59,987 nt of DNA, from positions 1-59,987 of the IMG/VR virus record IMGVR_UViG_3300041779_000001; one strand, written 5' to 3'. The notes beneath the pieces were generated by a model that was given only the letters and a program-made list of their open reading frames with translations, searched no databases and was not told the origin of the DNA. Below, one piece after another: positions 2-57,317 of this stretch. The stretch comes from a virus. Its lineage: Duplodnaviria; Caudoviricetes. Positions within the stretch are counted from its first letter, which is position 1. Each line of letters starts with the position of its first letter. The translations under genes were made by a program, and so were the position numbers.

Positions 2-127
2 GACATGGCAATGCTAGAATACCTGCACAAGGAGAATAAGAATGCCTAGCACATGGATTCCGCCCAAAGGCAAGGTCTACACCATCGCGGTCGACTTCGA
101 CGGGGTCATCCATGACTACCATCGGGG
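2..127. repeat. 126-bp terminal direct repeat (circular assembly overlap) with 59862-59987
   Basis: Bases 2-127 are identical to 59862-59987; base 1 (a) differs from 59861 (t). Confidence 0.97.
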
Positions 128-527
128 ATGGCATGATGGCACCATCTATGGGTCATTGATCCCCGAAACCAAGGCTTCTTTGCAGTATCTGCTGAGTAAG
201 TACTCAGTCTTCGTCTTCACCGCCCGGGACCCCGAACAGGTCATGCCCTGGCTAGAACAGCACGGTTTCGATGTAACCATCGACGAGCGCTGCGGTGCCT
301 GCCTGGGTTCGGGAGGTTTTAGGGGCCCCGATGGGATGGATGGGGTCATTGGACCTTGGACTAACTGTCAAGGTTGCAAGGGCACCGGACAACTCATGTT
401 CTGGAATCTCAGGGATCAGATCCTGGTGACTAATCGGAAGCTGGCGGCTGGTGCTTACATCGACGATCGGGGCATTCGCTTCGAGACCTGGGAACAAACG
501 CTAGCTGACCTGGAGGCTGTACTGTGA
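42..527 (+). CDS. HAD-superfamily phosphatase/nucleotidase with inserted CxxCxGxG zinc-finger pair
   Basis: Motif I DFDGVIH, motif II FTAR, motif IV YIDDR; internal CGACLGSG and CQGCKGTG. Confidence 0.8.
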   Translation: MPSTWIPPKGKVYTIAVDFDGVIHDYHRGWHDGTIYGSLIPETKASLQYLLSKYSVFVFTARDPEQVMPWLEQHGFDVTIDERCGACLGSGGFRGPDGMDGVIGPWTNCQGCKGTGQLMFWNLRDQILVTNRKLAAGAYIDDRGIRFETWEQTLADLEAVL

Positions 528-1009
528 ATGATCGACCAAGCCGCGACTTCGTGCTGATGAACAATGCCGTCCTTTGGGGCATGCGTAGTACCTGCACTCG
601 GGCAGGAGTAGGGGTAGTAATCTCTAAGGATGGTCGCATTCTCGCCAGTGGGTACAATGGTGCACCCTCGGGCATGGACCACTGCGACCATAGCTGTAAC
701 TGCGACTGGTTGGTAGATGGTAACAAGGGCTTGCATGAGAGCGATTGCCGATATAAGCAGCCCTGCAAGAACGTGGTACATGCCGAGGCAAATGCCATCG
801 CTTTCGCCGCTCGGTTCGGGGTGGGAGTAGAAGGAGCCGAGCTGTTCACCACTAGGGTACCCTGTCTAACCTGTGCTGGAATGATCATCAATGCCGGCAT
901 CAAACGGGTAGTATGGAGCGAGGAACATCGGGACATGGAGGGCTTCCTGCGCCTTGGACAGGCTGGTCTGGAGGTGGTACAATATGACCATGACCAATCT
1001 GAAGCCTGA
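524..1009 (+). CDS. dCMP deaminase
   Basis: STCTRAGVG, SGYNGAPSG, HAEANAI and PCLTC zinc-deaminase motifs. Confidence 0.93.
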   Translation: MNDRPSRDFVLMNNAVLWGMRSTCTRAGVGVVISKDGRILASGYNGAPSGMDHCDHSCNCDWLVDGNKGLHESDCRYKQPCKNVVHAEANAIAFAARFGVGVEGAELFTTRVPCLTCAGMIINAGIKRVVWSEEHRDMEGFLRLGQAGLEVVQYDHDQSEA

Positions 1010-3560
1010 CCGTGGCTGTACTTCGTGCAAGCTCCATCGCAATGCTGAGACTGTCTGTGAGATGGGCACAGGCCCTCGGGATGCCGAGATCATGGTCATC
1101 GGCAAGATGCCCAACTCAGGTCGGTATCAGCAGTCTCTGGAATCTCAGCTAGAGGAAGTTGGCCTCGACCCGAACCGGGTCTACTTCACCGCTGCTCTGA
1201 AGTGCAAGAACTTCGAGGACAATGCCAGTAATGCCGATGTCAAGGCTTGCCGGCAGCATCTCGAGCGTGAGATCGAGGTCGTAAGGCCAAGTCACATCTT
1301 GGCTCTAGGTAATGAGGGACTGCTCGCATCCACTGGGCACTCAGGGATTACCAAGTACCGGGGCAAGCCCATTGATAAGGGCGAGTATACCGTAATCCCT
1401 ACCGTCTCCCCAGCTGCTGTCCTGCGTAACCCCGGCCAGCGCCCCGGCTATATGGCTGACCTGCGGCTCTTCGCCAATGACTACTTGGGCTTGACTACGG
1501 GGGTTAAGGTACCCCAGTTCGCCAGGATTGATACCAAGGCGAAACTCAAGGCTCTCAAAAAGATCCTGTACATGTCCCACACCATCAGTTTTGACATCGA
1601 GACTACAGTCAACCCTCTGGGTGAGTTCGACCCCAAAGCTAAGATGATCTCGTTGGCGGGGACATGTTTTGCTACGGTTACTAATGAGGATGGTAGTGAG
1701 ACCGAAAAGATTTTCGGTTTCGCTTTGCCCCTGTACCATCCTGAGTCGGTCTGGCAGCGATCTTGGAAATGGGTACTAAAGTTCCTTAAGGGTGCTCTCG
1801 AGAGTATCGATAAGGGCATCGCTCAGAATGGTAAGTTTGACTGTCGTTGGCTTAAGCACTTTGGTGTTAACATGAAGCATACCTTCGACACCATGCTGGC
1901 CATTCATGTTCTAAACGAGAACATTGCCAAGGGCCTCAAGCCCAATGCTATGGCTCGTCTAGGTGTAGCACCCTGGGGCAGAGATACTAAGAACCTGTTG
2001 GGTGACCCCCTCAACGAAGTCCTTGAATATAACTTCCTGGACACCTACTATACCTACCTGATCTATAAGCAGCTCAGGGATGAGTTGGTAGAGCAACCTC
2101 GATTGCTGCGACTCTTTATGAAGTTGATGATGCCGGCAAGTCGAGACCTAGTGGACATCGAAAGGCGGGGGATCTGGCTTGATGTTCAACGGCTTACCAA
2201 TAGGAAGCCGATCGCAGAGGCTAAACTGGCTGAGATCGAGGCTAGTCTTAGCGAGTATCTACCCGATCCCGAGTCAGATGACTGGCCCATGGATTCCAAG
2301 GGTAAGAAGAAACTGGAGATCAACTACAATGCCAGTATCTTTGCTCGGTGGTTTCTCTTCGAGTGGCTACAACTTCCTGTCCTCGAACGGGGTAAGGAAA
2401 AGCCCGACGGCTCGCCGGGTGACCCTAGCATGGCTGAGTCGATACTCCTCCACCTTAAAGATCGTCACCCCGCAGTACAGTTGATGCTTGATCGTGTGGG
2501 ATGGCAGAAGAACCTCAGTTCATTCTTCAATGCATACGAAGTCATGTACGATGACAACCATCGGGTCCACACAACCTTCAAGCTTGCCGGTACCGTAACT
2601 GGTCGACTCAGTTCTGGGAAGGCTGATGCTGAAAAGGTCGGGGGTCGCACTGACCTGCGCGGGGTCAACCTTCAGCAGGTACCTCGGGACCCATTCATTC
2701 GGGGCATGTTCGGAGCACCGCCGGGATGGACTTTTGTCGAAGCTGACTATTCTCAGATCGAACTGAGGATTGCCGCGTTCATCGCCCATGAGCGTCACAT
2801 GATTCAACTTTACCAAGAGGGTGCCGACATTCACATGATCACCACTATGGGAGTCACTGGACTACCCAAGGCGGGGGTCACAAAGGAGATCCGTAAGAAA
2901 GTGGGAAAGCCGGTTAACTTTGGTTTTCTCTATGGTATGGGTTGGAAAAAGTTCATCGAGACCGCGTTCAACAACTATGGCGCGGTATTCAATGAGAGCG
3001 AAGCTAGAGCTTATCGAGAAGCTTACTTCAAGCTTTATCCCGACTTGCAGCGATGGCACGAGAGGCAGCGAAGGCTCGTCAGAGAAAACGGTAGGGTGCA
3101 GAGCCCCCTTGGGCGAGTGCGCCACCTGCCTGACATCTACTCGCCTGAGAAGGGGGTCCAGGCCGAAGCAGAGAGGCAGGCAATCAACTCGCCGGTGCAG
3201 GGCTTCGCCTCTGACATGGCATTGCTATCCATGACCCTGATCAATGCCGAGTTCAGGCGGCAGGGTATTGCCGGCAATTGCCTGGGACTGGTACACGACG
3301 CAATTAACTTCGAAATCCGAGACGATGATCTCGGGCGGGCCCTCCCTATCATCAAGGATACCATGGAGGATCCAGAACCTCTTAGGCAGAAATTCGGTAC
3401 TATTCTCACCATTCCGATTGTAGCTGACCTCAAACTGGGTCGTCACTGGGGTGACTCGAAGGAAGTTGAGAACCCAGAGGTGATCTACAGCGCGACTGAT
3501 CTGGCCTTCTGGATGGCTCAGAACCACCCCGCTTATCAGCACGGATCATTGGTTGCTTAG
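984..3560 (+). CDS. polA: Family A DNA polymerase with N-terminal uracil-DNA-glycosylase-like domain and 3'-5' exonuclease
   Basis: Exo I FDIET; TGRLSS, NLQQVPR, motif A ADYSQIELR, motif B KPVNFGFLYG, motif C VHD; N-terminal CxxCxLH...GPRDAEIMVIG...PAAVLR family-4 UDG pattern; ATG 984 follows GGAGG. Confidence 0.95.
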   Translation: MTMTNLKPDRGCTSCKLHRNAETVCEMGTGPRDAEIMVIGKMPNSGRYQQSLESQLEEVGLDPNRVYFTAALKCKNFEDNASNADVKACRQHLEREIEVVRPSHILALGNEGLLASTGHSGITKYRGKPIDKGEYTVIPTVSPAAVLRNPGQRPGYMADLRLFANDYLGLTTGVKVPQFARIDTKAKLKALKKILYMSHTISFDIETTVNPLGEFDPKAKMISLAGTCFATVTNEDGSETEKIFGFALPLYHPESVWQRSWKWVLKFLKGALESIDKGIAQNGKFDCRWLKHFGVNMKHTFDTMLAIHVLNENIAKGLKPNAMARLGVAPWGRDTKNLLGDPLNEVLEYNFLDTYYTYLIYKQLRDELVEQPRLLRLFMKLMMPASRDLVDIERRGIWLDVQRLTNRKPIAEAKLAEIEASLSEYLPDPESDDWPMDSKGKKKLEINYNASIFARWFLFEWLQLPVLERGKEKPDGSPGDPSMAESILLHLKDRHPAVQLMLDRVGWQKNLSSFFNAYEVMYDDNHRVHTTFKLAGTVTGRLSSGKADAEKVGGRTDLRGVNLQQVPRDPFIRGMFGAPPGWTFVEADYSQIELRIAAFIAHERHMIQLYQEGADIHMITTMGVTGLPKAGVTKEIRKKVGKPVNFGFLYGMGWKKFIETAFNNYGAVFNESEARAYREAYFKLYPDLQRWHERQRRLVRENGRVQSPLGRVRHLPDIYSPEKGVQAEAERQAINSPVQGFASDMALLSMTLINAEFRRQGIAGNCLGLVHDAINFEIRDDDLGRALPIIKDTMEDPEPLRQKFGTILTIPIVADLKLGRHWGDSKEVENPEVIYSATDLAFWMAQNHPAYQHGSLVA

Positions 3561-3614
3561 AAGATTGACCGATGGTTTGAGGAATGGTAATATGCCTAGT
3601 AAAGGAGGTCTATC

Positions 3615-3842
3615 ATGTCGAAGCGAAACCGTTCCTCAAACTACCCGATCTGCAAGCGAGCTAACAAGAAGATCCTGGTCGACCGTATTCAAGCTGATCT
3701 CCTGTTGGAGTATATTCAGCTGAATGCCAGGCGTACTATCCACGAAGAATCCCGAAGCTACCACTGCAATTTCGGTAATCACTATCATTTGACTTCAGAG
3801 GATCAGCGGACCGAGAATCATAACTCGCCGCATTCCGCGTAG
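3615..3842 (+). CDS. Small hypothetical protein with probable zinc ligands (YHCNFGNHYHLTS)
   Basis: AGGAGG RBS and upstream TTGACC promoter-like element. Confidence 0.65.
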   Translation: MSKRNRSSNYPICKRANKKILVDRIQADLLLEYIQLNARRTIHEESRSYHCNFGNHYHLTSEDQRTENHNSPHSA

Positions 3843-3844
3843 GG

Positions 3845-3898
3845 TTGACCCTCAGCCTCCCCGGCCGATAGGATGACTTTACAGCCTTGACCGAGGAG
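3845..3898 (+). promoter_or_regulatory. Sigma70/HrdB-type promoter plus TGACCGAGGAG leader motif
   Basis: TTGACC-N18-TAGGAT; motif at 3888-3898 before GTG 3905. Confidence 0.7.
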
Positions 3899-3904
3899 AA
3901 CTAG

Positions 3905-4963
3905 GTGCCTGGACTTTATTTTGATGAGAGCGTTGGGAAGTATGTTGTAACCCAATCCATGCTGAAGCTTTTCAAAACGTGCCCTCGGCAGACTCTGTAC
4001 AAGCAGGTAGAGCGCCTTAAGCCCCGAGTACTCTCCAAGCCTCTCAAGCGAGGCACATGGATGCACCACCTGCTGGAAGAACACCATGCCGGCAGAGACT
4101 GGCGAAAGATGCATGCCCAGTTGAGTACCCAGTTCGCCGGGTTGTTCGACGAGGAAAAGGATTTCTACGGCGATCTGCCAGTTGAATGTCTCGCTTTGAT
4201 GGAGTCTTACATCTGGCATTATGAGGCCGATCCCTGGATTGTCCATGAGACAGAGTTCACAGTCGAAGCAGAGTTCCCTGATGGCACCCTTTATCGAGGC
4301 AAGGTTGATGCTCTCATTGAGAACCAGTTCGGCCTCTGGATCGTAGACCATAAGACTCATAAGGTTCTGCCTAGTCATACTTTCCGTGTGCTAGATGCTC
4401 AGTCCGCCCTATACATCTGGGCAGCTAAGAAGATGGGTCTAAAGATCGAGGGCTTCATTTGGAACTACCTCAAGACTGTCGCCCCCTCCAAGCCCAAGCT
4501 TATCAAGAGTGGTGCTCGGTTGTCCAAGGTTATGGGGGATACTGACTATCTAACCTATACCCGAGAAATTCGACGACTGAAAGCCGAGCACGGCTATAGG
4601 ATCACGTCGGAGAATGTCGAGTTGTCTCGCCGACTAAAGGGTCATCGTTACGTACCTGGCGAACCCCAGCTCTCCGAGTTCTTCCGTAGGGATATCCTCG
4701 AGAAAGACGATGCGATGCTTCGGCGAGTTGCATCAGAGGCTTTCCACACCACCAGGCGCATGGCTAAGTATAACTTCGAACAGCGTGATGCAGTGGAGCG
4801 AAACTCCAACCGAAGTAACTGTGACTACATGTGCAGTTACCAAGATCTCTGTACAGTGGAACTCATCGGAGGCAATGTCGGGGCACTGCGTAAGAACTAC
4901 ACAATCGGCAACCCGCAAGATTATTACCAAGACAGAGCCGGCGAAGTAAAGGGGTCAGAATAA
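3905..4963 (+). CDS. PD-(D/E)XK (Cas4/RecB-like) exonuclease
   Basis: CPR, GTWMH, GKVDAL, IVDHKT, Q..LY and C-terminal CDYMCSYQDLC. Confidence 0.85.
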   Translation: MPGLYFDESVGKYVVTQSMLKLFKTCPRQTLYKQVERLKPRVLSKPLKRGTWMHHLLEEHHAGRDWRKMHAQLSTQFAGLFDEEKDFYGDLPVECLALMESYIWHYEADPWIVHETEFTVEAEFPDGTLYRGKVDALIENQFGLWIVDHKTHKVLPSHTFRVLDAQSALYIWAAKKMGLKIEGFIWNYLKTVAPSKPKLIKSGARLSKVMGDTDYLTYTREIRRLKAEHGYRITSENVELSRRLKGHRYVPGEPQLSEFFRRDILEKDDAMLRRVASEAFHTTRRMAKYNFEQRDAVERNSNRSNCDYMCSYQDLCTVELIGGNVGALRKNYTIGNPQDYYQDRAGEVKGSE

Positions 4964-7557: not shown

Positions 7558-8138
7558 TGATTGCCTGGTACGATACGGAATTTCACGAGAGGGGCCATCA
7601 CTTCCCGATCGACCTTATCAGCATCGGGTTGGTGCGCCAAGATGGCTTCCAGTACTATGCCATCTGTTCAGAGTTTGACTTCGAGGCTGCCTGGAATAAC
7701 CCAGGCAAAGATGGCGACTACTGGTTGAGGGAGAATGTCCTCAAGCAACTACCCCTGATCTGGCCCGAGAATCGATCCACACCTAAGCTGGATAAGGCCC
7801 ATGCTAGTGTTCGTAGTCGGGCAGCAATCCGACGCGAGCTGATGGTCTTCCTCGGGCTAGATGGCCTGAACCCCGCTGAGATCGAGCTCTGGGCATGGTA
7901 TGCCGACTACGATCACGTCGTACTCTGTCAGCTCTTCGGGACTATGGCTGAACTGCCTGCTGGCATGCCTATGTTCACCCACGACCTCAAGCAGGAACTC
8001 GCCCTACATGGCAACCCGCCCATGCCGGCACAGGTGAGGGGGCATCACAACGCCCTCGATGATGCTTTGCACCTCAAGTATATGTGGTCGCATGCCAAGG
8101 CTCGAGGACTCGTCAACAAGACCACACCTATCAACTAG
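7554..8138 (+). CDS. DEDDh 3'-5' exoribonuclease, Rv2179c/RNase AS-like
   Basis: YDTEF, IDLISIG, WAWYADYDHV.LCQLFG.M..LP, HHNALDDA. Confidence 0.88.
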   Translation: MMIAWYDTEFHERGHHFPIDLISIGLVRQDGFQYYAICSEFDFEAAWNNPGKDGDYWLRENVLKQLPLIWPENRSTPKLDKAHASVRSRAAIRRELMVFLGLDGLNPAEIELWAWYADYDHVVLCQLFGTMAELPAGMPMFTHDLKQELALHGNPPMPAQVRGHHNALDDALHLKYMWSHAKARGLVNKTTPIN

Positions 8139-8145
8139 GAGTACC

Positions 8146-8481
8146 ATGAGAATCGAACAGGCATGGCTTCGGCTGCGCGCCGGCGATCGTATCCGCAATG
8201 CCCACTGGGCTGAGGAGATGTGGATCGTCCTGCAAGAGGGTTACCCCGAAGGTATCCCCATCAATGCCAACACGGCAAGGGCAACTCACATCCCTGAGGG
8301 TACGGTTAAGGCCTTCCGGCCCTACATCATGCTGCACTGCGTAGATGGCAGCTTCGTGCCTTATGTCGCAACCCAGTCTGACCTGCTGACCGAACACTGG
8401 CAAGTCATTCACGGCGATGGTACTCAGGACCAGTACGCCGTCGTCATCGGGCGCCCGCTTAAGGATAATCCGCAGGCGTAA
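8146..8481 (+). CDS. DUF2829 / Tad2-like protein
   Basis: A...LRAGDRIR...W, PYIML, VPYVATQSDLLTEHW; ATG 8146 after AGGAG. Confidence 0.75.
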   Translation: MRIEQAWLRLRAGDRIRNAHWAEEMWIVLQEGYPEGIPINANTARATHIPEGTVKAFRPYIMLHCVDGSFVPYVATQSDLLTEHWQVIHGDGTQDQYAVVIGRPLKDNPQA

Positions 8482-12978: not shown

Positions 12979-13230
12979 ATGGCCTTCACACCCCCCGAAA
13001 ACCTCCCTGAAACGGAGGAAGACCTAGACAGTGCCCTGGCAAAGGTATATCTGGAGGGTAAGCGGGACGGCAAACGAGACTTGAGGTCGGAAATCAAGGA
13101 GTATCTTACCACTAAGTTCTACGGAGCCAAAGGCCGGGATCGTAGAGCTAACCCGGATGACCCGAAGATCCAGGCCATTCGGGAACTCATGCAAACACTG
13201 TACAGTAAGTTCGAGGATGGGTCTCTATGA
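12979..13230 (+). CDS. Hypothetical protein
   Basis: AAGGA RBS; ATGA overlap with primase-helicase. Confidence 0.65.
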   Translation: MAFTPPENLPETEEDLDSALAKVYLEGKRDGKRDLRSEIKEYLTTKFYGAKGRDRRANPDDPKIQAIRELMQTLYSKFEDGSL

Positions 13231-15272
13231 CAACTCCCAAGCCGGCAGTCGACCTCGGCAAAGCCCTTCGCATTATCTCGCGTGCATGGGGTAAGCAGTC
13301 TGGTTATGCCTTCTTCCCTTATATCGACCGAGCAGAACAGGAAGAGGCTGGACAGCGCCGAGCAGGCTTCCACGAGGGGCGGGCCTACGAGTGGCCCAAG
13401 GAAAAGGCCCAGATTCTTGAACACATGGCTGAGAACATCGGCCGTGATCTGTACTGGTGTCCCAACCTCTTCGAGGGCCCGGACCGCAAGTCAGAGCTCG
13501 CCATGGATGAACATGCCATGTGGGCAGATCTGGATGAAGCTGACCCTCGGATACTCAGTAATGAGTCCGACTTCAAACCTACAGTAGCTTGGGAATCCTC
13601 TCCCGGTCGGTATCAGGCATTGTGGCTGGGTAACCCCGATGTGGGTGATTTCCAGGGAGCTAGCTGGCCGGGTAACGAGAATCAGCGACTGAGCTATTAC
13701 CTCGGCGCTGACAAATCGGGCTGGGATACAACCCAGCTACTCCGGATTCCGGGTTGGCCCAACTGGAAACCTGAGTATCGCCGGAACGGCAAACCCCGCA
13801 TGGGTAAGCTGCTCTGGGATCGAGGGCCCATGTACAGCATGGAGGACTTCAAAGATCTCCCAGAGGTCAGAGGAGCCCTCACCCAGGACAAACTCGGCGA
13901 CATTCTTGAATCCGAAATCGATAACCTCGATCGATCCAAGATCATCGCTCGGATAAAGCTTAAGCTCAACCAGGTAGCTCGCGATCTGCTCACCTCCCGC
14001 ACAGCTGAGGGTCCACAGGGCTCGAGAGGGGATAATCTCTGGTACCTGATTAGATGCCTAGCAGATGCGGGCTGCACGGTTCAAGAGATCGTGGCAGTCG
14101 TTCGACCTTCGGTGTGGAATAAGTTCGAAGGCCGGCATGATGAGCTCAAGCGCCTGATCACTGAGGCGACGAAGGCCATCGATCAGCGCGATCCGGAAGT
14201 CGCGGAAGCTGTTGAGGAAGAGCAGGCACCCAAGTCGAGGCCCCAACGCCTCGCGGCCTTTCTCAAGAACGTGAAGCCGCCAACCTGGCTCGTGGATGGT
14301 ATCGCCACCGAGGGCAGCGTAGGCTTTATCGCCGGTTCACCGAAAAGTTTTAAGTCCTGGTTTGCCCTCGATCTCGCCCTATCCATCGCTACAGGTAGTC
14401 TCTTCCTCGATTACTTTCGGGTAGTCAAACCGGGTCGGGTACTATACATCCAGGAAGAAGATCCCGCTAGTACGGTCAAGGCTCGCACCAAGAAAATCTG
14501 GCGCAGTAAATCTTCAGATAAGATGACCATGGAACAGGGTGATGTACTCTGGTTGCCCGGTAATGACGACGACTTCGACCCCAACATCGACATTTACCTC
14601 ATGGAGGGCTTCGTAGTTTCTGAGGGTCATTGGCAAGAATGGCTCGATCAGGTAATGACTGAGGCCGCCGCTGAAGATGATCCCTACGTCATGGTTATTG
14701 TAGACACCCTCATGAACGTTGCCGGCGACGTTGAGGAAAACAAGTCACAAAGCATGACCACGAAGATCTTCAAGCCCATCAAGGTACTGATGAGGAAGCA
14801 CAATTCAGCTTTCCGTTTCGTTCACCACATGGGTAAGGGTGGCGATGATGGTACTAAACGAGGCGGTCAACGAATGCTGGGGGGCACAGCCAACCATGCC
14901 TGGGCTGAAGATAGTCTCTACATCTCAAGGGATAGTAAGCCTGGTCGAGTCAAGGTAGAGTTCGAATCCAAGTCAGCTCCCGAACAGCTTTACACCATCA
15001 GCGGTCTCGATAACCGCCTCTGGACTCCCTTCTTCGAGCCGGTACCCAAAAAGGATTCTCCCACACCCACAACGCCTGGCCGCGCACCGAGAGCCAAATC
15101 AAGCCAGCCTCACCCTGTCATGGAACTGCTCGGTCAAGGTGGTTCCTGGACTACACACGATGTCGCTGAGGCTACCGGAAAGCCCTACAATTCAACCTAC
15201 AAATCACTTCAGCGCTTCGAAGCGCGGGGTCTAATTACCAAGTCAGGCAAGGCCTGGCGACTAGGTACCTGA
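13227..15272 (+). CDS. Primase-helicase (RepB-like primase, AAA_25/RecA-like helicase, C-terminal wHTH)
   Basis: WADLD, WESSPGRYQALW, LLRIPG; Walker A GSPKSFKS; VLYIQEED; VIVDTL; FVHH. Confidence 0.88.
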   Translation: MTTPKPAVDLGKALRIISRAWGKQSGYAFFPYIDRAEQEEAGQRRAGFHEGRAYEWPKEKAQILEHMAENIGRDLYWCPNLFEGPDRKSELAMDEHAMWADLDEADPRILSNESDFKPTVAWESSPGRYQALWLGNPDVGDFQGASWPGNENQRLSYYLGADKSGWDTTQLLRIPGWPNWKPEYRRNGKPRMGKLLWDRGPMYSMEDFKDLPEVRGALTQDKLGDILESEIDNLDRSKIIARIKLKLNQVARDLLTSRTAEGPQGSRGDNLWYLIRCLADAGCTVQEIVAVVRPSVWNKFEGRHDELKRLITEATKAIDQRDPEVAEAVEEEQAPKSRPQRLAAFLKNVKPPTWLVDGIATEGSVGFIAGSPKSFKSWFALDLALSIATGSLFLDYFRVVKPGRVLYIQEEDPASTVKARTKKIWRSKSSDKMTMEQGDVLWLPGNDDDFDPNIDIYLMEGFVVSEGHWQEWLDQVMTEAAAEDDPYVMVIVDTLMNVAGDVEENKSQSMTTKIFKPIKVLMRKHNSAFRFVHHMGKGGDDGTKRGGQRMLGGTANHAWAEDSLYISRDSKPGRVKVEFESKSAPEQLYTISGLDNRLWTPFFEPVPKKDSPTPTTPGRAPRAKSSQPHPVMELLGQGGSWTTHDVAEATGKPYNSTYKSLQRFEARGLITKSGKAWRLGT

Positions 15273-17174: not shown

Positions 17175-18722
17175 TGATGACGGGCTTGGAGCAGGGCACG
17201 GATTGATGGAAGTAGTGGGCACTAGAATATTATCCTGCTCACTACTTTCATCGTGTAGGGGCCCTCTCAGGGACAGTTTAGAGAAGCACTGCTGATCGCT
17301 GATCGATCGCATATCGAAGGGCATTAACCACGATGGATAATACACGCTTGGAATGGATCGAGTGCGAGCTCTGCGGTATGCTGTATACATGGTTCAGGGT
17401 GGAGGTTATTGAAGGGCTTGTGATGTATGGGTGGCTGCATAAGACTGATGGTGACTGCAGTAAGGACGGAGGATTGCAATGGAGTGAGTGACTACTTGGA
17501 GTGAGTAGGTCGAGGTGACTGACTACATGGGGCTTTGGTCCGAACTTGATGGGGTATCGGGGTTAGTGAGTTAGCTTACGGGGGAACCGGGACAGAGTGA
17601 CGAGGCTCGGGGATAAGGGGTGAAAGGACTACTGCCTGTCCGGGCCTTGATGGAGGAACGTGGTGTGTATGGTTGACTGCGGGTGAATTTCGATTAAAGC
17701 CTACGTTCACTACGGAGTTGGACCAAACACGGATCTGACGTACCGGTCGCTGGGGGGTAAACTGACACTGTCTAGAGGACTACTGGGATTCCGTAGAACA
17801 CTCTAGAGAGCACTACCCGAACCTGGGAGAAAACACGGGGAAAACACGGGGAAACTCGAGGCTTTTTTCGGGACTTTTCCTGGGAAAAAACAGGGAAATT
17901 CTCTGGGAAAAGACCCACCAATATACATATGTATACTATGCAGGACTTCAAGTCTATACCCGGGAGATGGTACTGTATCCCAGGGTACAAATCCTGGCTT
18001 TTCCAGTCTTTTCTAGTAGATAATCGTGTTGTCAATGTCAACGTCAACTTTTACATGGCTTAGGTTTATAGGTATTGACATTATGGTTGGTCGCAGAAAT
18101 TGACGTCAATGTGACATACATAGGAACCAACTTTAGGTTCGAGTTCCGGGTCAATTTCTCTGTCTGGAGTTTGTCTATACCGTAGCTGCAGCGCTTCCGG
18201 TCCGGTATTACGGGAGCTGCTGGGGTTTGGAGCCCAGGGAGTTGGCATCTTGGATGTCAGAACTTATTGGGAAACTTCAGGATACGTCGTAATAAAGTGC
18301 CATGTATCCCGAGTTAATACCCAGTACCATCCAAATCGGACATTGTCCCCGTTGCGTCCAAAGGGGAGGAAGGGGCGGTATGCCTCAATGCTACCATCTC
18401 CGTCATTGGGACCATAGGCGATGTTTGGGATTAATCTCCGGGAAGCGACGATCATGCGAAAACGGACATTGTAGATCATGTCGGCCTTGGAGCCCATATC
18501 CCCGTGAGGGGGCTAGGTGCATGATGAATCGACGCGATACGCTCTGTCAGTCGCCACGTGAGGGCGTAGGGGGGCATGCCCTGAAGCTAGCTATCCGGGC
18601 GAGGGTCACCCCCTCAGTGACGGCGTCAGGGGCCGCATCGACTCCCCTCACGCGCGCATGATCGCGAGTATGGGGGGCATAATCCTGGCATATGCCACCT
18701 CGGGGTTGATCATGGTATCGAC

Positions 18723-18796: not shown

Positions 18797-19219
18797 ATGA
18801 CCGCATACAACACTCGCTCCCTCGCCGAGGCGCTGATCGGCGACGACGGCAAGCAGGCGACGCGCACGACTCGCAAATTTCTGCGCGATGAACTCGGCGG
18901 GGGAAAGGCAGTGGTCGGCAAGGGGGGGCGCTACAATCTCGACTACAATAAGCGCGAACTGACCGCCCTCACGAAGAAGTTTAAGGCATGGGAAACCGCT
19001 CAGGAAGCGGCGAAGATCGCTCGCGCCGCCGAAATGGCCGAAAGGGCCAAAACGGCCGGGACCGCCGTTATCCTCCCCGATGACTCGAACGGGGACGACG
19101 CCGACATCCTCGACGAAAACACCGAATCGGACAACCCGGCCACCGGGCCCACCGACGAGGAAATGGCCGAAATGCTGGCCGAAGGGGACGACGAGGACGA
19201 AACGGACATCGAGGACTGA
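18797..19219 (+). CDS. HTH-like DNA-binding protein with acidic tail
   Basis: RKFLRDE...VGKGGRYNL resembles 10033-10596; GAAA-loop hairpin at ~19228-19245 follows. Confidence 0.75.
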   Translation: MTAYNTRSLAEALIGDDGKQATRTTRKFLRDELGGGKAVVGKGGRYNLDYNKRELTALTKKFKAWETAQEAAKIARAAEMAERAKTAGTAVILPDDSNGDDADILDENTESDNPATGPTDEEMAEMLAEGDDEDETDIED

Positions 19220-19361
19220 TCGCCCAAGGCCCCCGAAAGGGGGCCGAAGGGTGTGTAATCGCCAGGGGGCGTTCTGCGCGCAGCAATCGGGGTGTGGAAT
19301 GCTAGCATACACCCCGCGATGATCTTGCCTTACAACGTCATACAAAGCTTCGGCGATTTCC

Positions 19362-19390
19362 TTGACACCGTGGGGGCGAGGGGGTAAAAT
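19362..19390 (+). promoter_or_regulatory. Near-consensus promoter for a leaderless gene
   Basis: TTGACA-N17-TAAAAT-N6-ATG. Confidence 0.8.
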
Positions 19391-19396
19391 AAAGGT

Positions 19397-19612
19397 ATGA
19401 ACAACGACGATGCAATCGACAATGCAATTGACGCCCTCGATGAATTCCTGACCCGCGCGATCGACGCTCTGCCGATCACCGCCTTCGAAATCTCTTCCGA
19501 TGATGCTAATGCCATCATCGCATCGATCCCCGAATCGATGATCAAACTCTCCGACGCCCTATACGATGCTTTCATCGAAAATATCCCCGATTTCACTTCG
19601 CCTGACGCCTAA
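19397..19612 (+). CDS. Small highly acidic protein
   Basis: Leaderless start; D/E-rich with one K and one R. Confidence 0.7.
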   Translation: MNNDDAIDNAIDALDEFLTRAIDALPITAFEISSDDANAIIASIPESMIKLSDALYDAFIENIPDFTSPDA

Positions 19613-19700
19613 ACTGATCTCCCCCTGCCCCCTTGACACGGGGGGGCAGGGGGGGGTATGATTGACTTATCAACCCGACGACCACGAAGGACTGATTCAA

Positions 19701-19901
19701 ATGCCCGTTTCCCTCGCCAAAAACCTTGACATTTGCTCCAACTGCGGCCGCGACTGCGCGCCGACGCCCTCGATCGAACTTGACCCTCTCTGCTCCGCCT
19801 GCATCGCCGACTTCCGCGCCCGCGATATCAATCTCCCCATCGACACCCTGCACGACCTCGCCCCCATCCTCGCCGATCACATCACCGACTACCTCCGCTG
19901 A
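19701..19901 (+). CDS. Small zinc-finger protein
   Basis: CSNCGRDC...LCSAC; GAAGGA RBS; TTGACA-N18-TATGAT promoter at 19633. Confidence 0.65.
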   Translation: MPVSLAKNLDICSNCGRDCAPTPSIELDPLCSACIADFRARDINLPIDTLHDLAPILADHITDYLR

Positions 19902-20015
19902 TCGACCCCCTGACGCCCCCTACGGGGGGCTGATGGGCGTGCGCATCATTGCCGTATGCCAGCATTCTCGACGCCCAGGGACGCCCTCAGAGGGCGCGTC
20001 AGCGCCCCCCTCGAG

Positions 20016-20231
20016 TCAGTGCGCGATATTGCGCGCGTTGCAGAGTTTGATCATCGCGTCGGAGATCAGTTGAAGATCGGTGGAGGGGTCGTAGTCGATC
20101 TTGTCGTGAATCAAGATCGTTTCGGCGATATCGGCGAAATCGTCGTCGTTCAGCGCAGTGGGGGTCGGGTCGTAGTCGAGAAGATCAGCGAGGGCGATTT
20201 CAGCGATTCGGTTGATCGTGTCGTTGTTCAT
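20016..20231 (-). CDS. Small acidic protein (leaderless)
   Basis: TTGACA-N17-TAGAAT-N6-ATG on the minus strand; shares MNND and MIKL with 19397. Confidence 0.7.
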   Translation of the reverse strand: MNNDTINRIAEIALADLLDYDPTPTALNDDDFADIAETILIHDKIDYDPSTDLQLISDAMIKLCNARNIAH

Positions 20232-20362
20232 ACTTCGATTCTATACTGCGTCAGCGACGGTGTCAACAATGCATGCATGCTGAACCCTTCCTTGACGCCC
20301 CCCTCGCATCATGGTAAAGTATACCTATCAACCTGAACCGCGACCCTGAGGGACTGATCATC

Positions 20363-20644
20363 ATGACCCGCACGACGATTCACACCTCCGACGGCGATAC
20401 CTATTACCGATCAGGCGCCGCCCGCACGCTGATCACCCGCGCCCTGCTCGGCATTCTGATCTTCGCCGCGCTGATCATCGCCATCGCCGCGGGAATCGGC
20501 TTTTCCCAGGCGGGGAATTCGAATTCCCCCTCCCCCAAGGAATTCTCCATTCTGCACAATGCGCAAAAGGAAATGCCGAATGGGAATTGCCGCCTCGAAT
20601 GGAATTCCATTCAGAAAGGGCATGAAGTAATCTGCGATCGCTGA
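20363..20644 (+). CDS. Membrane-anchored protein
   Basis: One TM helix; TTGACG-N17-TAAAGT promoter at 20292. Confidence 0.65.
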   Translation: MTRTTIHTSDGDTYYRSGAARTLITRALLGILIFAALIIAIAAGIGFSQAGNSNSPSPKEFSILHNAQKEMPNGNCRLEWNSIQKGHEVICDR

Positions 20645-20803
20645 ATTGCCCTCGCCCCCTCCGGGGGGCTGAGCGGCGTCGTAAGGCATGATCCTTCCTA
20701 CAGGAATGCTGGCATACGGGACGGGATGATCATGCCCCCACACCCCCAAAGATTGCTACGTCAGGTCCTTGACACTACCCGGCCTAGGGGGTATATTTAA
20801 GGC

Positions 20804-21367
20804 ATGACAACGACACCGCACACCGACTGCCACCACCCCGCGACGAAGGCCGCCCGCGCGAAGTGCCGCAAGGCCCGTGCGGTGCAGGTCGAGGCCCCCC
20901 GCACGATGAACCTTGACGAGGTGATCAAAGCCTACTACAATAACTCCCTTGACATGGAGGAAATCGCCTCGCGGCTGATCGCCCTCGCCCCCAAGGCCGC
21001 CGAGGGATTCTACAACAACTCCCTCACCAACGAGGAAGTCATCGCCGAGGCCATGAAGGCCCTCAACGGCCCCACTGAGGCCCCCGCGACCGCCCCCGAA
21101 CCTGAGGCCACCCGCATCCATCCGATGCTTCTCGACGCCGTTAACCCCATGATCACCCTCACCGCGAATGACTCCTCAACTGAGGTTCCCTACCTCGACC
21201 TGAAGCTGATCATGCGCACCCCCCACCCGAGCCGGGTAATGGCCGGGGGAATGGGAAAGGCAATGCTTCGCCACCGCCAAATCCTTCGCTCCCTTACCGC
21301 GGCATTGGGAATCACCGAGGATAAGGCAATCGCCCTCGCCAATGCCGCGGTAATGGAATTGCAATAG
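20804..21367 (+). CDS. Hypothetical protein with N-terminal HxxCxHxxTKAARAxCR motif (leaderless)
   Basis: TTGACA-N17-TATATT-N6-ATG; internal YNNSL..EE repeat. Confidence 0.7.
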   Translation: MTTTPHTDCHHPATKAARAKCRKARAVQVEAPRTMNLDEVIKAYYNNSLDMEEIASRLIALAPKAAEGFYNNSLTNEEVIAEAMKALNGPTEAPATAPEPEATRIHPMLLDAVNPMITLTANDSSTEVPYLDLKLIMRTPHPSRVMAGGMGKAMLRHRQILRSLTAALGITEDKAIALANAAVMELQ

Positions 21368-22025
21368 GGGGCCGGGGGCCTATATAGGGTCCTTTCCCCT
21401 GTGTATTCCCATATTGCCGGGGCGCATATAGGCGGGGGCATTGGGCATGCGCATTGCGCCCCATATCCCTGCCCCTATCCCTGCCTTTATGGATAGGCAA
21501 TGCATGCATCATGCGCATTGGTGATGAATGCATATTGCCGGCATATATATCCGGGGGGCTATAGGCTGGGGGTATGGGTATGGGCCCCTATTCCCAATCA
21601 ATTGATCTGATGTTATATCCCATTGATTCATCATGCATGCATTGTTCTAATCGGAATGATCTGATGCGCGCATGCATTGTTGATAGGGAATGATCCGGTG
21701 TATGATTGATGCGGCATGAATGCATAGGGATAAGCGGGATCTATCCGTGTTTATTCCGGAATATTCCATTGTATTCTAGTATGTTCCGGTGTGGTCGGAT
21801 TGGTCTAGTTCAGTCTAATTTGGTTAGATCTTACGATTTGTGATGAATGTCCGTTCCCAGAGGTATGAACCCCCCGGGATAAATATCCCCCATGTCCGGT
21901 TTGTACCCGTCCGGACCATAGTGCCCGCGTGCTCTTCCTTCTTTCCCAGAAACCCTATCCACGTATAGCCACCTAAAAATGAAGCGCCTGTCGAGTACCC
22001 GCACGAGATCTGATAGCATAGCCCC

Positions 22026-22286
22026 ATGACCGACAACGACGACGACGACGACGAATTGACCGGTGAATGGGCCCACGAGGTCTACATCCCCCAGCTGCAA
22101 CTCGACCTCCAGGAAGCCCAATACTTCGAACCGCCCGACATTAGCTTCGACGACGTCCTAGAGCCCGAGCCCTGGACCTGCAAGTATCGCGCCCCGGCTT
22201 GTGTGGACGGCTATCACGGGGCGACCTGCGATAACTCCTGCGACCGATTCCGTACAGCCCAGCTCAGGCGGGAAGGGAAGATCTAG
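22026..22286 (+). CDS. Acidic, Cys-containing hypothetical protein
   Basis: TAGCAT-N6-ATG; first gene of a plus-strand run. Confidence 0.6.
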   Translation: MTDNDDDDDELTGEWAHEVYIPQLQLDLQEAQYFEPPDISFDDVLEPEPWTCKYRAPACVDGYHGATCDNSCDRFRTAQLRREGKI

Positions 22287-22291
22287 CACCC

Positions 22292-22735
22292 ATGACCGAC
22301 GAGCACCTCGAGAAGTTCCTGATCTCAGGCCATGGCGACAACAGCCTACTGATTTGCGCGGCTGAACCATGTGAGTGGTACATGCCTTTCCCAACGGCCC
22401 ACTCACTCCTCCGCATGATGCACCAGGCAGACCTGCACGCCACCACCAATCACGGCTACATACCCCCGGTTCGTGTGGAAGGATACCTGCCGCCGGGAAC
22501 CACCGTATACGAGAGTGAGGCCGACTACCGCAAGAGACGCTACAACCCCGTCGACAAACGGTGGCTTTACCCCGAGGAGAGTGACTACGAGCCCGAGCCT
22601 CCGCCGAAAGAGCCCAACGACACTCCACACCCCTTCGTGCCCAGAGCAACTTTTGGGGCGGTCTCCAAGCACTGCGAGGAGTGCTACCCCACTCGTCGCC
22701 GGCAGGGTCACCCGATTCATACACAGAGAGACTGA
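22292..22735 (+). CDS. Hypothetical protein
   Basis: Operon packing; C/H ligands. Confidence 0.6.
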   Translation: MTDEHLEKFLISGHGDNSLLICAAEPCEWYMPFPTAHSLLRMMHQADLHATTNHGYIPPVRVEGYLPPGTTVYESEADYRKRRYNPVDKRWLYPEESDYEPEPPPKEPNDTPHPFVPRATFGAVSKHCEECYPTRRRQGHPIHTQRD

Positions 22736-22738
22736 GTC

Positions 22739-23161
22739 ATGACCGATGAGTTCCAGTACCCGCCCGGCATCACCGACAAGGCAGCCTACGACGCCCAGAC
22801 CTACCTGGAGGGCGGTACTGAGGAGGCTATGGCGGCTGCGGCTCGTATGGATGCAGCCCCTGCTTGTGTCACCCACGCCTACGGTACCTGCGATGGCACT
22901 ACTAGAGACTGCGTACTTCTCAAGAAGAAAGAGACACCCATGCATTCTTTCGAGGCCCCGTCGGGCACCACGTACCACCACAACGGCGACTTCAGCGGCA
23001 ACATCGTCATGGACGGAGAAGATCGACTGGGTGGGGACATCGAGATTCCGTTCGAGGACATCCGGGCTCTGTACCTGGAGTCCCTGCGCCGCAGCAAGAT
23101 CTCGGCACTCGAGCAGGCATCTGCTGACTTCCTAGAAGAAGCTGCTCGGAGGGGACTGTAA
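22739..23161 (+). CDS. Hypothetical protein
   Basis: Operon packing; HHNGDFSG segment. Confidence 0.6.
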   Translation: MTDEFQYPPGITDKAAYDAQTYLEGGTEEAMAAAARMDAAPACVTHAYGTCDGTTRDCVLLKKKETPMHSFEAPSGTTYHHNGDFSGNIVMDGEDRLGGDIEIPFEDIRALYLESLRRSKISALEQASADFLEEAARRGL

Positions 23162-23442
23162 TGAAGATCAGGGATCGGAACCCCGATAATCCCCGGGCGG
23201 TATGTATCCACTGCGGCACGTGGGTATGCCATGAGTGCTGGGATTGGCATCGTAATGGGGCTGCTCGGAACGGTCATCAGATCTGCATCAAGTGTGGGGG
23301 GATCGAGGGGGAGTTCATCGCGGTCCGGCATAACAAGGAGGGTCACGATGTACTCTCCGCTCCTGCCCCGTTGATCCTGCACCGGATGTTCGTAGTCGGC
23401 CCTAAAGGGCAAATCAGCCTTTGGCGGCCGGGCTGGAGATGA
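23161..23442 (+). CDS. Cys-rich zinc-finger protein
   Basis: CIHC, CHEC, CIKC; TAATG overlap. Confidence 0.6.
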   Translation: MKIRDRNPDNPRAVCIHCGTWVCHECWDWHRNGAARNGHQICIKCGGIEGEFIAVRHNKEGHDVLSAPAPLILHRMFVVGPKGQISLWRPGWR

Positions 23443-23633
23443 TAGCATAATTCCATGGCGCCCCGGATACTGACCCGATTGTACTGACGAAGGCGGAGAG
23501 AGATTCGCCGCAGGAAGAATTGGGAGGCTTTCTGCTTTAACTATGCGCCCGCGGATAAGTGGTACAGGGTCCAGGAAGAAAATAGGGTCCTGGGCATCTG
23601 GGACGGCACCTATGAATTGCCGGAGGAGAAAAA

Positions 23634-24212
23634 GTGACACTACAGGACGCGATCATCGAGATCTTGGCTGACGGGGGTCCAATGACCCTCGATAATCTCC
23701 GACTTCAGTTGGCTGGGGAACTGCCGGGTAACGGGGTCACTGGGATAAACCCCATCAACATCAACAATGCCCTAACTGACCTGAGGATCGCGGGTCGGGT
23801 CACCAATGAGTGGCGACTGAGCGGGCCTGACGAGGGTTCGACGACGGGCATTGATCCGGGGGTGCGTGAACAGGCCCTGGACATGGCGATTCGGGCCTAC
23901 AGGCCCAACCCCATCGACAACCCGAAGACCCTCCGAACTCAGCTGCTGGCGATGGCTGAGGAGTTCTATGCCTTCTTGATGGGGGCAGAAATCCAAACCG
24001 AGGCGGTTCGGCCTTCACGTCAGTACTCGGGGGGCATGGTCCGGCTCGACGCCAGCAAGTCTCCCAGTGACCCTTCGGCTGTCACAAAGGCTGATGAGCC
24101 CATGCCCGAGGGCTTCCATCGGAAGACTTCTGGGGAGCGCCCGGTCAAGACCAAGTCCTTCACCGACGACTTCGCGGAGATGAACGAGTACAATAGCCCC
24201 GAAACCGACTAG
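23634..24212 (+). CDS. Hypothetical protein with N-terminal winged-helix-like domain
   Basis: AIIEILADGGPMTL...L..L...GRV...W; GGAGG RBS. Confidence 0.6.
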   Translation: MTLQDAIIEILADGGPMTLDNLRLQLAGELPGNGVTGINPININNALTDLRIAGRVTNEWRLSGPDEGSTTGIDPGVREQALDMAIRAYRPNPIDNPKTLRTQLLAMAEEFYAFLMGAEIQTEAVRPSRQYSGGMVRLDASKSPSDPSAVTKADEPMPEGFHRKTSGERPVKTKSFTDDFAEMNEYNSPETD

Positions 24213-46000: not shown

Positions 46001-46360
46001 TATGTCGGAAAGACCTCGACTACCGTCGGGTACAGCAGTACAAGCGACAGCAATGATACTTGGTGGTATTTCAACAATGACGGTACAACCGGGCTAGTTG
46101 GTCGATTCCCAAATAGCCCCAGTGTAGGACATAATGAGGCTATCTGGACGGGAGATGGCTCGGTAAGTTCAGCTTTCCAGGGGGTGGCATTTGGGTACGG
46201 AGTAACCATGCTCACCACTCCTCGGCCTTTGACCAGTCTATACTATGTGGGTGCTAGCCAACCCTTCTCCTGGGTCAGTGCCCGATCTACCACCGGGTTC
46301 ACCGCATCCTGGAATATCGCCCTCAGTATTACCGTGCAGTGTCTAGCTTTCAGGATGTGA
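43007..46360 (+). CDS. Baseplate hub/central fibre with fibronectin-III and carbohydrate-binding-like domains
   Basis: FN3 signatures (PAVPTGL, VEAVDKYNRVSGWS, AVDTTGNRSAPS); GNLLDDGSFE; AITTALIANLAVNNAKI repeats. Confidence 0.8.
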   Translation: MAPQFMLRTVTSVGNLDQFLPDVQSLTLSPVFSQAGSVIFTYPQSGKNYNLLVEDTEIAVMIDGVEAGALRCILEQIEGDDANEAADGMVWTFTCRTTMALFDRAVVYPKGWPGANNPPTHSWTTTTAGGVLKDLVAKAQGRGTLTDLTLAFDNVHDSAGQAWAENLDNLSYDAGTKYSDIIQGLVDGGYLEVSMDRRTLSAYNPGTLGVDRSTGTNPLRFHEGRDLSESPRKVSTRDLATYLLVAGTNNAYVEQGSASDIVTQWGRRESYYSANNSDAEGVLRVTGSWKLATLNRPLLEVTHGLVFEDSSNPRPIRNFGLGDWGLSDVGRGWERYRIKQWVMVLNADGTVNGSVTLNDLIAEQIDKLNSRLGGIENGSSATGGSDEVDDGKAPAVPTGLNLTSDYYLSGTQALAIITANWVAVTTNADGSVATDLNYYLVRWKYSTDTNWRTTQRIDNGDTVAYFDGLFPNQTAQVQVEAVDKYNRVSGWSPTVSITTALDTIPPVKPSAPVVVSNVGTLRVTWSGLDYLGSQQAPDFKGVEVHIGTNGTFTPDNTTLKDFLTSRSTTSTTITGLTYGTDWFARLVAVDTTGNRSAPSDLTSTSHAVLNQIVSVEIGTGQVGLNNTAFSDVGNLLDDGSFEIATKRADRQTQINGTHLAFDSSVSSSGAWSLRSDSFVAGTVEYFTLQDALPVKPGERIFGALDLRATSGFTGAVNLDIAWFNGTGTQIDSAGNPIANFYTLAGTANTVADNNWHARVTGVSLVAPPGVATMRLLLYTSGRTAGTVWADAIEVRKQIDTLLIQQAAITTALIANLAVNNAKISDLSVGKITAGTLNADIIVGSRIKTADTGARTEMNTSGFGAWDSSNTQTFSASSSDGSIVIIGSLKSGPAGNRVEINPSGGLPEIRFYPSTGSNYAFINAFSPTGSGSAFLGLNSGQSTLNGQTSSFRIFMADDQASFETIISATQAKLGTYITLFETDAAFAYCNSDGSDAGFVYVGKTSTTVGYSSTSDSNDTWWYFNNDGTTGLVGRFPNSPSVGHNEAIWTGDGSVSSAFQGVAFGYGVTMLTTPRPLTSLYYVGASQPFSWVSARSTTGFTASWNIALSITVQCLAFRM

Positions 46361-52587: not shown

Positions 52588-52680
52588 TTGTGACAGTCTC
52601 GGAGTGGGCCGCAGACTATCGATTATCTTTAGTATTCCTCATGGTTTCTAAAGGCTCTAGGCCACCTGAGGTCACCCACC

Positions 52681-57314: not shown

Positions 57315-57317
57315 GAG

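Follow-up and report, generated by a model that had tools for sequence, protein, structure and literature searches.

The AC-free tract and its surroundings

The window analysed here is the whole of the IMG/VR metagenomic virus record IMGVR_UViG_3300041779_000001 (59,987 nt), a soil actinobacteriophage identified as a tailed phage by its TerL, portal and capsid genes (Pfam/PHROG matches). Its large terminase, TerL, is 63% identical to that of Curtobacterium phage Shrew and 62% identical to those of Microbacterium phages Triscuit and Huwbert over 98-99% of its length; the remaining TerL matches are to actinophages, all below 40%, and the capsid genes are also homologous to those of Triscuit and Shrew. 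An earlier note on this DNA had drawn attention to a mostly non-coding tract without a single AC dinucleotide on the plus strand. This AC-free tract, at positions 21315-21833, is the subject of our analysis. It sits in a 658-nt non-coding gap (21368-22025) between open reading frames (ORFs) 20804-21367 and 22026-22286, and is followed by a short element conserved in related viral contigs. From left to right, the features of the gap and its borders are:

20804-21367, plus strand: upstream ORF of 187 aa, its last 53 nt inside the tract; N-terminus matching phrog_18656 and phrog_1342 (function unknown), with no Pfam match
21315-21833, plus strand: AC-free tract (minus strand without GT); 0 AC against 23-30 expected, the longest dinucleotide gap in the window
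21368-21600, both orientations: G/C-run modules beside TATA-like words (CCGGGGGCCTATATA, GGCGGGGGCAT, CCGGGGGGCTATAGGCTGGGGGTATGGG, CCCCATATCCC)
21498-21726: seven ATGCAT sites, mainly in CAATGCATGCAT or ATGCATGCATTGTT words; 7 of the 19 copies in the window; inverted pairs I4/I12
21735-21835, plus strand: T/G-rich oriented segment with about 14 of the 24 GT of the tract; a similar segment precedes the conserved element in relatives, Triscuit and Shrew
21846-21853 and 21892-21899, plus strand: two direct ATGTCCG words flanking the invariant 16-mer, from alignments
21864-21879, plus strand: invariant 16-mer TATGAACCCCCCGGGA, exact in six related viral contigs and identical in 7 of 7 rows of alignment A1
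21909-21916: GTCCGGAC palindrome; predicted right end of a direct terminal repeat after 21916 (CGGAC/CATAG, the slash marking the end), by homology only
21957-21970, plus strand: conserved TCCACGT box past the predicted repeat end; CCACGT invariant in A1, also in Triscuit, Shrew and contig L014
22014-22019, plus strand: -10-like TAGCAT, 6 nt ahead of the ATG at 22026 (ORF 22026-22286); same layout in relatives

The absence of AC reported by the earlier note is real. The flanking AC dinucleotides lie at 21314-21315 and 21833-21834, leaving a gap of 519 nt that is the longest among all 16 dinucleotides in the window; the runner-up is an AA gap of 383 nt. Against the zero AC observed, 23.3 would be expected from local base composition and 30.4 from the genome-wide AC frequency (0.0587). 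The minimum in 20,000 shuffles of the local bases was 9, and among 300 first-order Markov genomes no AC gap exceeded 233 nt and no gap of any dinucleotide 411 nt. The bias is asymmetric between the strands, with no AC against 24 GT (binomial p 1.2e-7); for GT, 43 are expected. CA occurs 29 times against 23.3 expected, AT is in 2.4-fold excess (77 against 32.3), and GG and CC are both enriched; the minus strand carries 39 GG and 19 AG. Just four AC lie in the whole of 21315-21916.

We consider chance or an assembly artefact hardly credible. The shuffle and Markov statistics argue against it, as does a Logan contig of 28,424 nt that is identical to the window over 19000-24000 with 0 differences, and the same feature recurs in contigs with different IMG sample numbers and in two cultured phages. 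Because the Logan contig may come from the same source sample, the comparative evidence carries more weight here than that contig does. These results bear out the proposal that the tract is functional, as well as its description as mostly non-coding: the first 53 nt overlap ORF 20804-21367, the other ORFs of at least 25 aa have low-complexity translations, and no ORF within the 658-nt gap is credible. A non-coding RNA, also among the functions first suggested, found no support. The tract had 0 matches in Rfam, its fold z-scores (-1.13 on the plus strand, -1.27 on the minus) indicate no stable RNA structure on either strand, and the adjoining conserved element lacks covariation (covariation term 0.03).

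The AC-free state is conserved through sequence turnover

A TerL search retrieved 15 related viral loci, six of which reach the homologous place, 7.5-10 kb upstream of TerL. Applying the same test in these related genomes, as had been proposed, identified AC gaps of 274-435 nt at the homologous place in five of the six loci (L002, L003, L005, L009 and L011). In the five relatives for which whole records were fetched, AC gaps of at least 230 nt occur solely at this place, plus in G002 a leftward gene that adjoins the tract and gives an extra gap of 435 nt. Measured up to an xAACCCCCC word of the element, the AC-free run-up is 519 (+34) nt in the window. The relatives have 315, 340, 382, 272 and at least 328 nt, Triscuit has 191 nt, and Shrew has 176 nt, with a further 205 nt following a single AC. 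The run-up stops at the element in eight of the nine examined sequences with at least 300 nt of upstream cover, the exception being L014.

The sequence of the tract has meanwhile changed considerably. Those of G001, G005 and L005 are 62-69% identical (differences at 31-38% of aligned sites), and placing the observed substitutions at random sites yields 12-15 AC, where one is seen; none of 5,000 simulations was as low. The AC-free state has therefore been maintained through sequence turnover, either by selection or by a process that re-uses only AC-free words.

The tract is written in few, repeated words

The order along the tract is one of G/C runs with TATA-like words, the ATGCAT cluster, the T/G-rich segment and finally the conserved element, and the 658-nt gap contains 20 direct-repeat families and 13 inverted pairs. 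Across five tracts (2,200 nt) there are 31 copies of ATGCAT against 0.3 expected from the genomes, a roughly 100-fold excess, and the cluster in the window looks like a set of operators or iterons. GGGGGCAT, GCATATA and TATCCC are likewise enriched over five tracts, and in G002 GATGCATTGTTATTTCC-like units are repeated directly five or six times over. Between 86 and 91% of tract positions fall inside 6-mers that recur in the same tract. The tract of the window uses 363 different 6-mers, where dinucleotide-preserving shuffles give 420 +/- 7.8 (a shortfall of 7 sd), and its 4-mer diversity is the genome-wide minimum (142 against a median of 203), which is not so in the relatives.

Orientation matters for some of these words. 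Those without AC and GT run both ways (CATA 24 and TATG 24; GATG 41 and CATC 18), whereas GT-bearing words occur in one orientation only, without exception. Pooled over six tracts, the base after A is T in 395 cases (78%), A in 55 (11%), G in 44 and C in 11. Relative to expectation AC stands at 0.09 and AG at 0.33, A followed by C or G being the most depleted class. We rejected cytosine deamination (AC to AT) as the source of this pattern: it would add at most about 119 AT to the 152 expected, against 395 seen, and CC is enriched, not depleted. Readings based on Z-DNA, ultraviolet dimers, Rho sites, CRISPR protospacer adjacent motifs or McrBC were also set aside, each of them predicting other or symmetric depleted steps.

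One other part of the window has unusually simple sequence. Positions 52924-53570, inside ORF 52590-53708, are of low complexity, with AA-free (383 nt), TA-free and AT-free runs; they have the second-lowest 4-mer diversity of the window, and the homologous regions are the lowest-diversity windows in relatives.

The tract adjoins the predicted inner end of a terminal repeat

Every tract terminates at the conserved element, TATGAACCCCCCGGGA ... CCGTCCGGAC/CATAG, and the cultured relatives indicate what this element may be. Triscuit has an exact direct terminal repeat of 3,795 bp, entered as '3795bp DR' in the Triscuit passages of PMC7302621, and Shrew an exact repeat of 4,512 bp. Their right repeats end ...CGCGGAC/CATAG (Triscuit) and ...CACGAAC/GGTTCC (Shrew), in the same alignment column, which in the window is the position after 21916. 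The window, five relatives and Triscuit have a common order at the border, namely ATGAACCCCCC, about 36-37 nt, CGGAC/CATAG, TTCCCCAAA and CCACGT, and Shrew's end falls in the same column. (Junctions were aligned with MAFFT; the G002 row was set aside there, and G002 was taken from A1.) The repeat of Shrew closes with 616 non-coding nt, and the gene that follows lies 26 nt past the repeat end; in the window the unique region has its first gene about 110 nt past the predicted border. This is ORF 22026-22286, probably leaderless and the first gene after the predicted repeat.

Because the Triscuit and Shrew repeats end at the aligned position of the element that adjoins the tract, the tract is most likely the non-coding last ~550 bp of a direct terminal repeat of about 4 kb, placed by homology. 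Among the functions that the earlier note had listed, a terminus or injection leader is thus the best fit. A cohesive-end (cos) site does not suit the clade, its closest cultured relatives having direct repeats of 3.8 and 4.5 kb. The left border of the predicted repeat is not fixed, the contig ends of G004 and G005 falling inside the early region and not at borders; 17175-18700 may hold it.

Other observations touch on the words at the border. The stretch 17175-18700, about 1.5 kb without a convincing ORF, contains a tandem GAAAACACGGG repeat and TCTAGAG words as at Triscuit's left end, together with two AAAxCGGACATTGT words, in which the ATGTCCG words beside the tract recur in inverted form. 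The repeat of Triscuit (L047) carries at least five GGACGGACGGGAAG iterons at 136-150 and 2800-3150, and the border element of the window holds CCCGTCCGGAC, the reverse complement of a word similar to Triscuit's GGACGGACGGGAAG. Contig L021 was rejected as a relative, being an unrelated contig of 36% GC in which the 16-mer is one arm of a hairpin. That perfect hairpin (TCCCGGGGGGT ... ACCCCCCGGGA, at 2810-2850) lies upstream of a replication-protein-like ORF, and on the strand carrying the 16-mer GT is frequent and AC scarce for some 350 nt or more.

Early-type genes of the predicted repeat exclude other dinucleotides

Upstream of the tract lie small early-type genes, each with its own TTGACA-N17/18-TAnnnT promoter, and a related copy of one of the tract's words:

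18797-19219, plus strand: small early-type gene
19397-19612, plus strand: small early-type gene
19701-19901, plus strand: small early-type gene
20016-20231, minus strand: small early-type gene
20263-20284: inverted copy of the tract's ATGCATGCATTGTT word (TCAACAATGCATGCATGCTGAA), with two ATGCAT; inverted pairs I5 and I16; beside the -35 of a leftward promoter
20363-20644, plus strand: small early-type gene

Over 18.7-21.4 kb the promoters are near consensus with a G-rich spacer, and a hairpin follows each small gene. Promoter-like sites number 17 against 8.1 +/- 2.7 in shuffles, including five 11/12 matches at 18723, 19362, 19633, 20769 and 20266 (minus strand). A -10 hexamer stands 6 nt before the ATG at 19385-19399, 20792-20806, 22014-22028 and 20229-20243 (minus strand), a spacing that suggests leaderless mRNAs; a conserved GGACTGATCATCATG leader occurs on other early genes (18782, 19686, 20348). 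The TCAACAATGCATGCATGCTGAA copy is placed in the 131 nt that separate the divergent genes 20016-20231 and 20363-20644, whose promoters are at 20266 (minus) and 20292 (plus), in what would be an operator-like position. By analogy with phage T5, 18.7-21.4 kb would be laid out like an early or host-takeover module within a terminal repeat.

Gene-level dinucleotide counts in 18.7-20.7 kb use genes set by hand. On the sense strands of 19397-19612, 19701-19901 and 20016-20231 (minus), AG, GG and GT together total 0-2, with GT at 0-1. Codon junctions in 19397-19612 and 20016-20231 contain none of the three, against 8.5 and 7.4 in codon-order shuffles (0 of 2,000 as low). The exclusion runs with the direction of transcription and therefore operates on RNA or on a single DNA strand. 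The earlier note had linked the tract to an avoidance of GT by nearby genes. GT is indeed missing from these three small genes, yet AG and GG are missing too, which is a different rule; with GG and CC both enriched in the tract, the gene rule is matched in neither orientation and the proposed link does not hold. The proteins of these genes are acidic, begin MNND... and resemble Shrew gp8-10 by eye; none of them matched a PHROG family.

Exclusion in Shrew (L049, PQ868981) is far broader. The last ~1.7 kb of its repeat (2800-4400) contains gaps of 912 nt for CC, 895 for GG, 824 for AG, 706 for CT, 687 for AC and, twice, 618 for GT, and GC content goes down to 28-40% against about 60% nearby. Within 2940-3990 these six forbidden steps make up 22 of 1,050 dinucleotides, on both strands, in a region with three genes for acidic proteins; all three proteins lack Gly, Pro, Thr and Val, and two of them also lack Trp. 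Triscuit has nothing comparable. Our literature searches found no description of the exclusion in Shrew or in the window, PMC7302621 being represented by its Triscuit passages.

Source record and genome content

The window encodes a large terminase, a portal protein and a major head protein, PolA fused to a UDG domain, a RepB/AEP-type primase-helicase with a C-terminal helix-turn-helix (HTH; 13227-15272, 6 kb from the tract), a PD-(D/E)XK nuclease, a RecA-like AAA_24 protein, a GH25 lysin, an SNF2 helicase, a dCMP deaminase and a thymidylate-synthase-like gene. Part of this content forms a cluster:

55968-59909 and 42-3560: nucleotide-metabolism cluster in the order of Triscuit gp62-70 (thymidylate-kinase-like, NTP pyrophosphohydrolase, phrog_13667, thymidylate-synthase-like, dCMP deaminase, PolA-UDG)

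The cluster hints at a non-canonical pyrimidine in the phage DNA. Its gene order continues across the window's ends, and the Logan contig reaches at least 1,703 nt past the left end; both ends of the window are therefore arbitrary. A TerL search of 185,579 species genomes found no prophage, 20800-22300 matched none of 50,697 phage records by blastn, and the flanking small proteins (187 aa and 147 aa) had no relatives among viral contigs. Elsewhere in the window, ORF 8059-8481 has a Thoeris anti-defence 2-like (Tad2-like) domain (E 3e-13), and ARAGORN placed a tRNA-Pro(CGG) at 45681-45754 within the 1,117-aa ORF 43007-46360, which makes either the call false or the ORF not a single gene.

Interpretation and alternatives

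Our favoured reading, which we hold to be evenly poised between right and wrong, is that the tract is a cis-acting, protein-binding run-up of reduced vocabulary at the inner end of a terminal repeat, kept AC-free by selection. The phage would be a lytic actinobacteriophage related to Triscuit and Shrew, with a repeat of about 4 kb carrying small early-type genes under host-type promoters. The run-up would lead to the conserved element as the site of end formation. Its tiling by few words (ATGCAT(TGTT) operator-like palindromes, G5/C4 runs beside TATA, and TATCCC) would make it an array of protein-binding sites where the early-gene repeat meets the remainder of the genome, a counterpart in position and build of the injection-stop or repeat-border region of T5. 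Selection could exclude AC if the first-entering repeat meets nucleases before the counter-measures of the phage exist, and a target read on one strand would need to be removed from that strand only.

Several findings weigh against this reading. The window is a single collapsed metagenomic contig, labelled 'linear' by IMG/VR, in which a 4-kb repeat and its left border are predicted and not visible; the end repeats of two relatives (70 and 127 nt) lie elsewhere and look like assembly overlaps. The junction homology depends on short conserved words in the MAFFT alignment. Comparing the Triscuit and Shrew junctions with the window by blastn gave no similarity at the tract and element region: all five hits have E values of 0.007-0.53, one falling at 18580-18613 and the other four elsewhere in the window. 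Contig L014, which is more distant (TerL 70%), has the conserved element but no AC-free run-up, and the large non-coding part of Triscuit's repeat contains AC freely. The tract is also so repetitive that the absence of AC could be a by-product; the 216 nt that no repeated 6-mer covers show a weak deficit, 1 AC against 4.9 expected. The analogy with T5 is incomplete as well, since the DnaA-box pairs that define the T5 region are absent from the tract and that region has no wholly absent dinucleotide save a 220-nt TC-free end. The avoided target, the binding protein and the polarity of entry are put forward as proposals.

The repetitiveness just mentioned is the core of one alternative, in which an oriented array of binding sites and palindromes grew by duplication and slippage of AC-free words without any selection on AC itself. 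The share of positions in repeated 6-mers, a 6-mer diversity 7 sd under that of shuffles, the motif families common to relatives (with the direct GATGCATTGTTATTTCC-like copies of G002) and the weak deficit in non-repeated positions all speak for it. Such an array does not readily explain why words free of AC and GT lie in both orientations and every GT-bearing word in one only, nor why AC and GT stand at 11 to 103, about 5.5 times below the base-skew prediction (119 to 201), when for AG/CT and AA/TT the deviation stays under 2-fold. At 31-38% divergence, moreover, point substitutions should have yielded 12-15 AC, and coding genes of the repeat in Shrew and the window obey their exclusions even at codon junctions, for which site arrays cannot account. 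We regard a pure by-product as possible, if rather unlikely, and direct selection on AC as somewhat more likely. A more specific proposal is that pseudo-sites for the end-forming nuclease are avoided: if the cut at the right repeat end follows G-R-A-C, the several hundred bases that the packaging motor traverses beforehand would be kept AC-free on that strand against premature cutting. The right ends of Triscuit (...CGGAC/) and Shrew (...CGAAC/) would agree with such a core, left junctions lie 1-3 nt after GAGAC, the first conserved AC past every tract lies in the GAACC and GGACC of the element, and the run-up halts there in the eight of nine sequences, L014 excepted, noted above. Yet ends are mapped in two phages only; no end forms at the GAAC of the invariant 16-mer, which lies some 47-52 nt ahead of the mapped right end; left junctions show no AC-free run-up (3 AC in the last 60 nt in Triscuit, 2 in Shrew); and we know of no described terminase with so short a core, though no search aimed at this was made. 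We think this version improbable.

Three further readings seem to us less probable again. A leftward transcript might avoid GU as the neighbouring early mRNAs do, given the 0-1 GT on the sense strands of 19397-19612, 19701-19901 and 20016-20231 (minus), the leftward gene adjoining the tract in G002 (435-nt AC gap) and a leftward HTH gene at this place in Triscuit and L014. Since those early genes also lack AG and GG, of which the tract's minus strand has 19 and 39 (GG enriched), 21300-22100 contains no leftward promoter-like site, and the tract has no credible ORF and no notable fold (z -1.3), there is little chance that this is correct. The same small chance falls to a replication origin or primer-exclusion zone, with iterons, easily melted AT steps and no pppAC (pppAG) primers for plus-strand synthesis. 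T7 and T4 primers begin AC and those of E. coli DnaG begin AG; iteron-like repeats and palindromes are present, AC and AG form the most depleted class, and the phage has its own primase-helicase with a C-terminal HTH. That primase is of the RepB/AEP type, however, and its gene is 6 kb away; 21315-22025 contains no DnaA boxes, cumulative GC skew dips over 19-23 kb with no clean extremum at the tract, and a position at the repeat border is better explained by end formation or entry. Least probable of all is a modification-free zone, in which a base is modified in certain dinucleotide contexts and the tract avoids them on one strand so that a protein can read it. The nucleotide-metabolism cluster in Triscuit gp62-70 order is of the kind that accompanies non-canonical pyrimidines in other phages, according to the abstracts of PMC5889632 and PMC8989533. 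Against this, no DNA-modifying transferase, kinase or methylase family was found among 70 ORF queries (Pfam/PHROGs; a subset of the ORFs), the passages of PMC8989533 drawn on here give no sequence context, and context alone would not explain exclusion from one strand.

A broader form of the selection hypothesis would cover the genes as well. The clade may write the inner end of its repeat, genes and non-coding sequence alike, in a reduced dinucleotide alphabet under direct selection at the nucleic-acid level, AC being the core of a strand-read target, either of the phage's own end-cutting nuclease (after G-R-A-C) or of a host nuclease that encounters the DNA entering first; in Shrew the same pressure would strip six dinucleotides from both strands and deprive three proteins of five amino acids. 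We offer this tentatively and with more doubt than belief. If true, it would be a new and extreme form of sequence avoidance.

Comparison with known systems

Like iteron origins and cos or pac sites, the tract is an array of short repeated words beside what would be a DNA-processing site. It differs from them in having no initiator gene adjoining it and no DnaA boxes, and in belonging to a clade whose cultured members have long direct repeats. With up to one mismatch to the DnaA box consensus TTNTCCACA, the window contains 41 matches against 40.8 expected, and 21315-22025 contains none. We know of no described origin or pac site that lacks a dinucleotide, and our literature searches found none.

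The comparison with restriction-site avoidance concerns where and how sites are removed. Passages of PMC10644984 describe defence sites in T5-like phages as mattering only in the first-transferred repeat, and strand bias as a way of evading Type III enzymes, which need inverted sites; for the early-injected region of Autographiviridae, passages of PMC12455610 describe defence sites as mattering likewise. The exclusion of AC would be similarly confined to first-entering DNA, and removal from one strand can suffice. Known restriction sites span 4-8 bp, in contrast to the bare dinucleotide here, which has no known cognate enzyme; far from being avoided, palindromic 6-mers like ATGCAT are over-represented in the tract.

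Triscuit and Shrew share with the window the border words, the non-coding run-up, and a first unique gene with its promoter just past the border, and the G-run/TATA and ATGCAT/ATGA word families recur in Shrew. Triscuit differs in using AC-containing GGACGGACGGGAAG iterons, in having a leftward MerR-like gene at this place and in its run-up of 191 nt. In Shrew six dinucleotides are excluded on both strands, whereas in the window it is one on one strand.

The closest known counterpart, by analogy, appears to be the repeat border of T5 and BF23. The T5 record annotates an injection stop signal (iss), non-coding and about 1 kb long, at the inner end of the left terminal repeat, and passages of a preprint describe the border region as packed with repeats and palindromes and as conserved across the T5-like phages (bioRxiv 10.1101/866236). 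As there, a large untranslated region would lie at the inner end of a long repeat with small early genes and host-type promoters, here placed by homology, and copies of a related word occur between divergent early promoters deeper in the repeat. A looser likeness is that the last 220 nt of the T5 left repeat (L051, AY543070, 9990-10210) are TC-free, C-poor and strand-asymmetric. There is no sequence or gene homology with T5 in what was compared, and the host is actinobacterial; the tract is not a member of the T5 iss family.

The non-coding borders of long terminal repeats, cis-acting and essential, have proved hard to dissect genetically ever since the work on T5, and what stops, restarts or ends DNA at them is still debated. 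This clade offers a border signature that can be counted, a one-strand dinucleotide ban conserved through sequence turnover and stronger still in the cultured Shrew. So sharp a signature points to a one-strand reader of very short words, and experiments are possible in cultured actinophages. Should its cause be evasion of a nuclease acting on incoming DNA, restriction-site avoidance would extend to a far more drastic form than is known.

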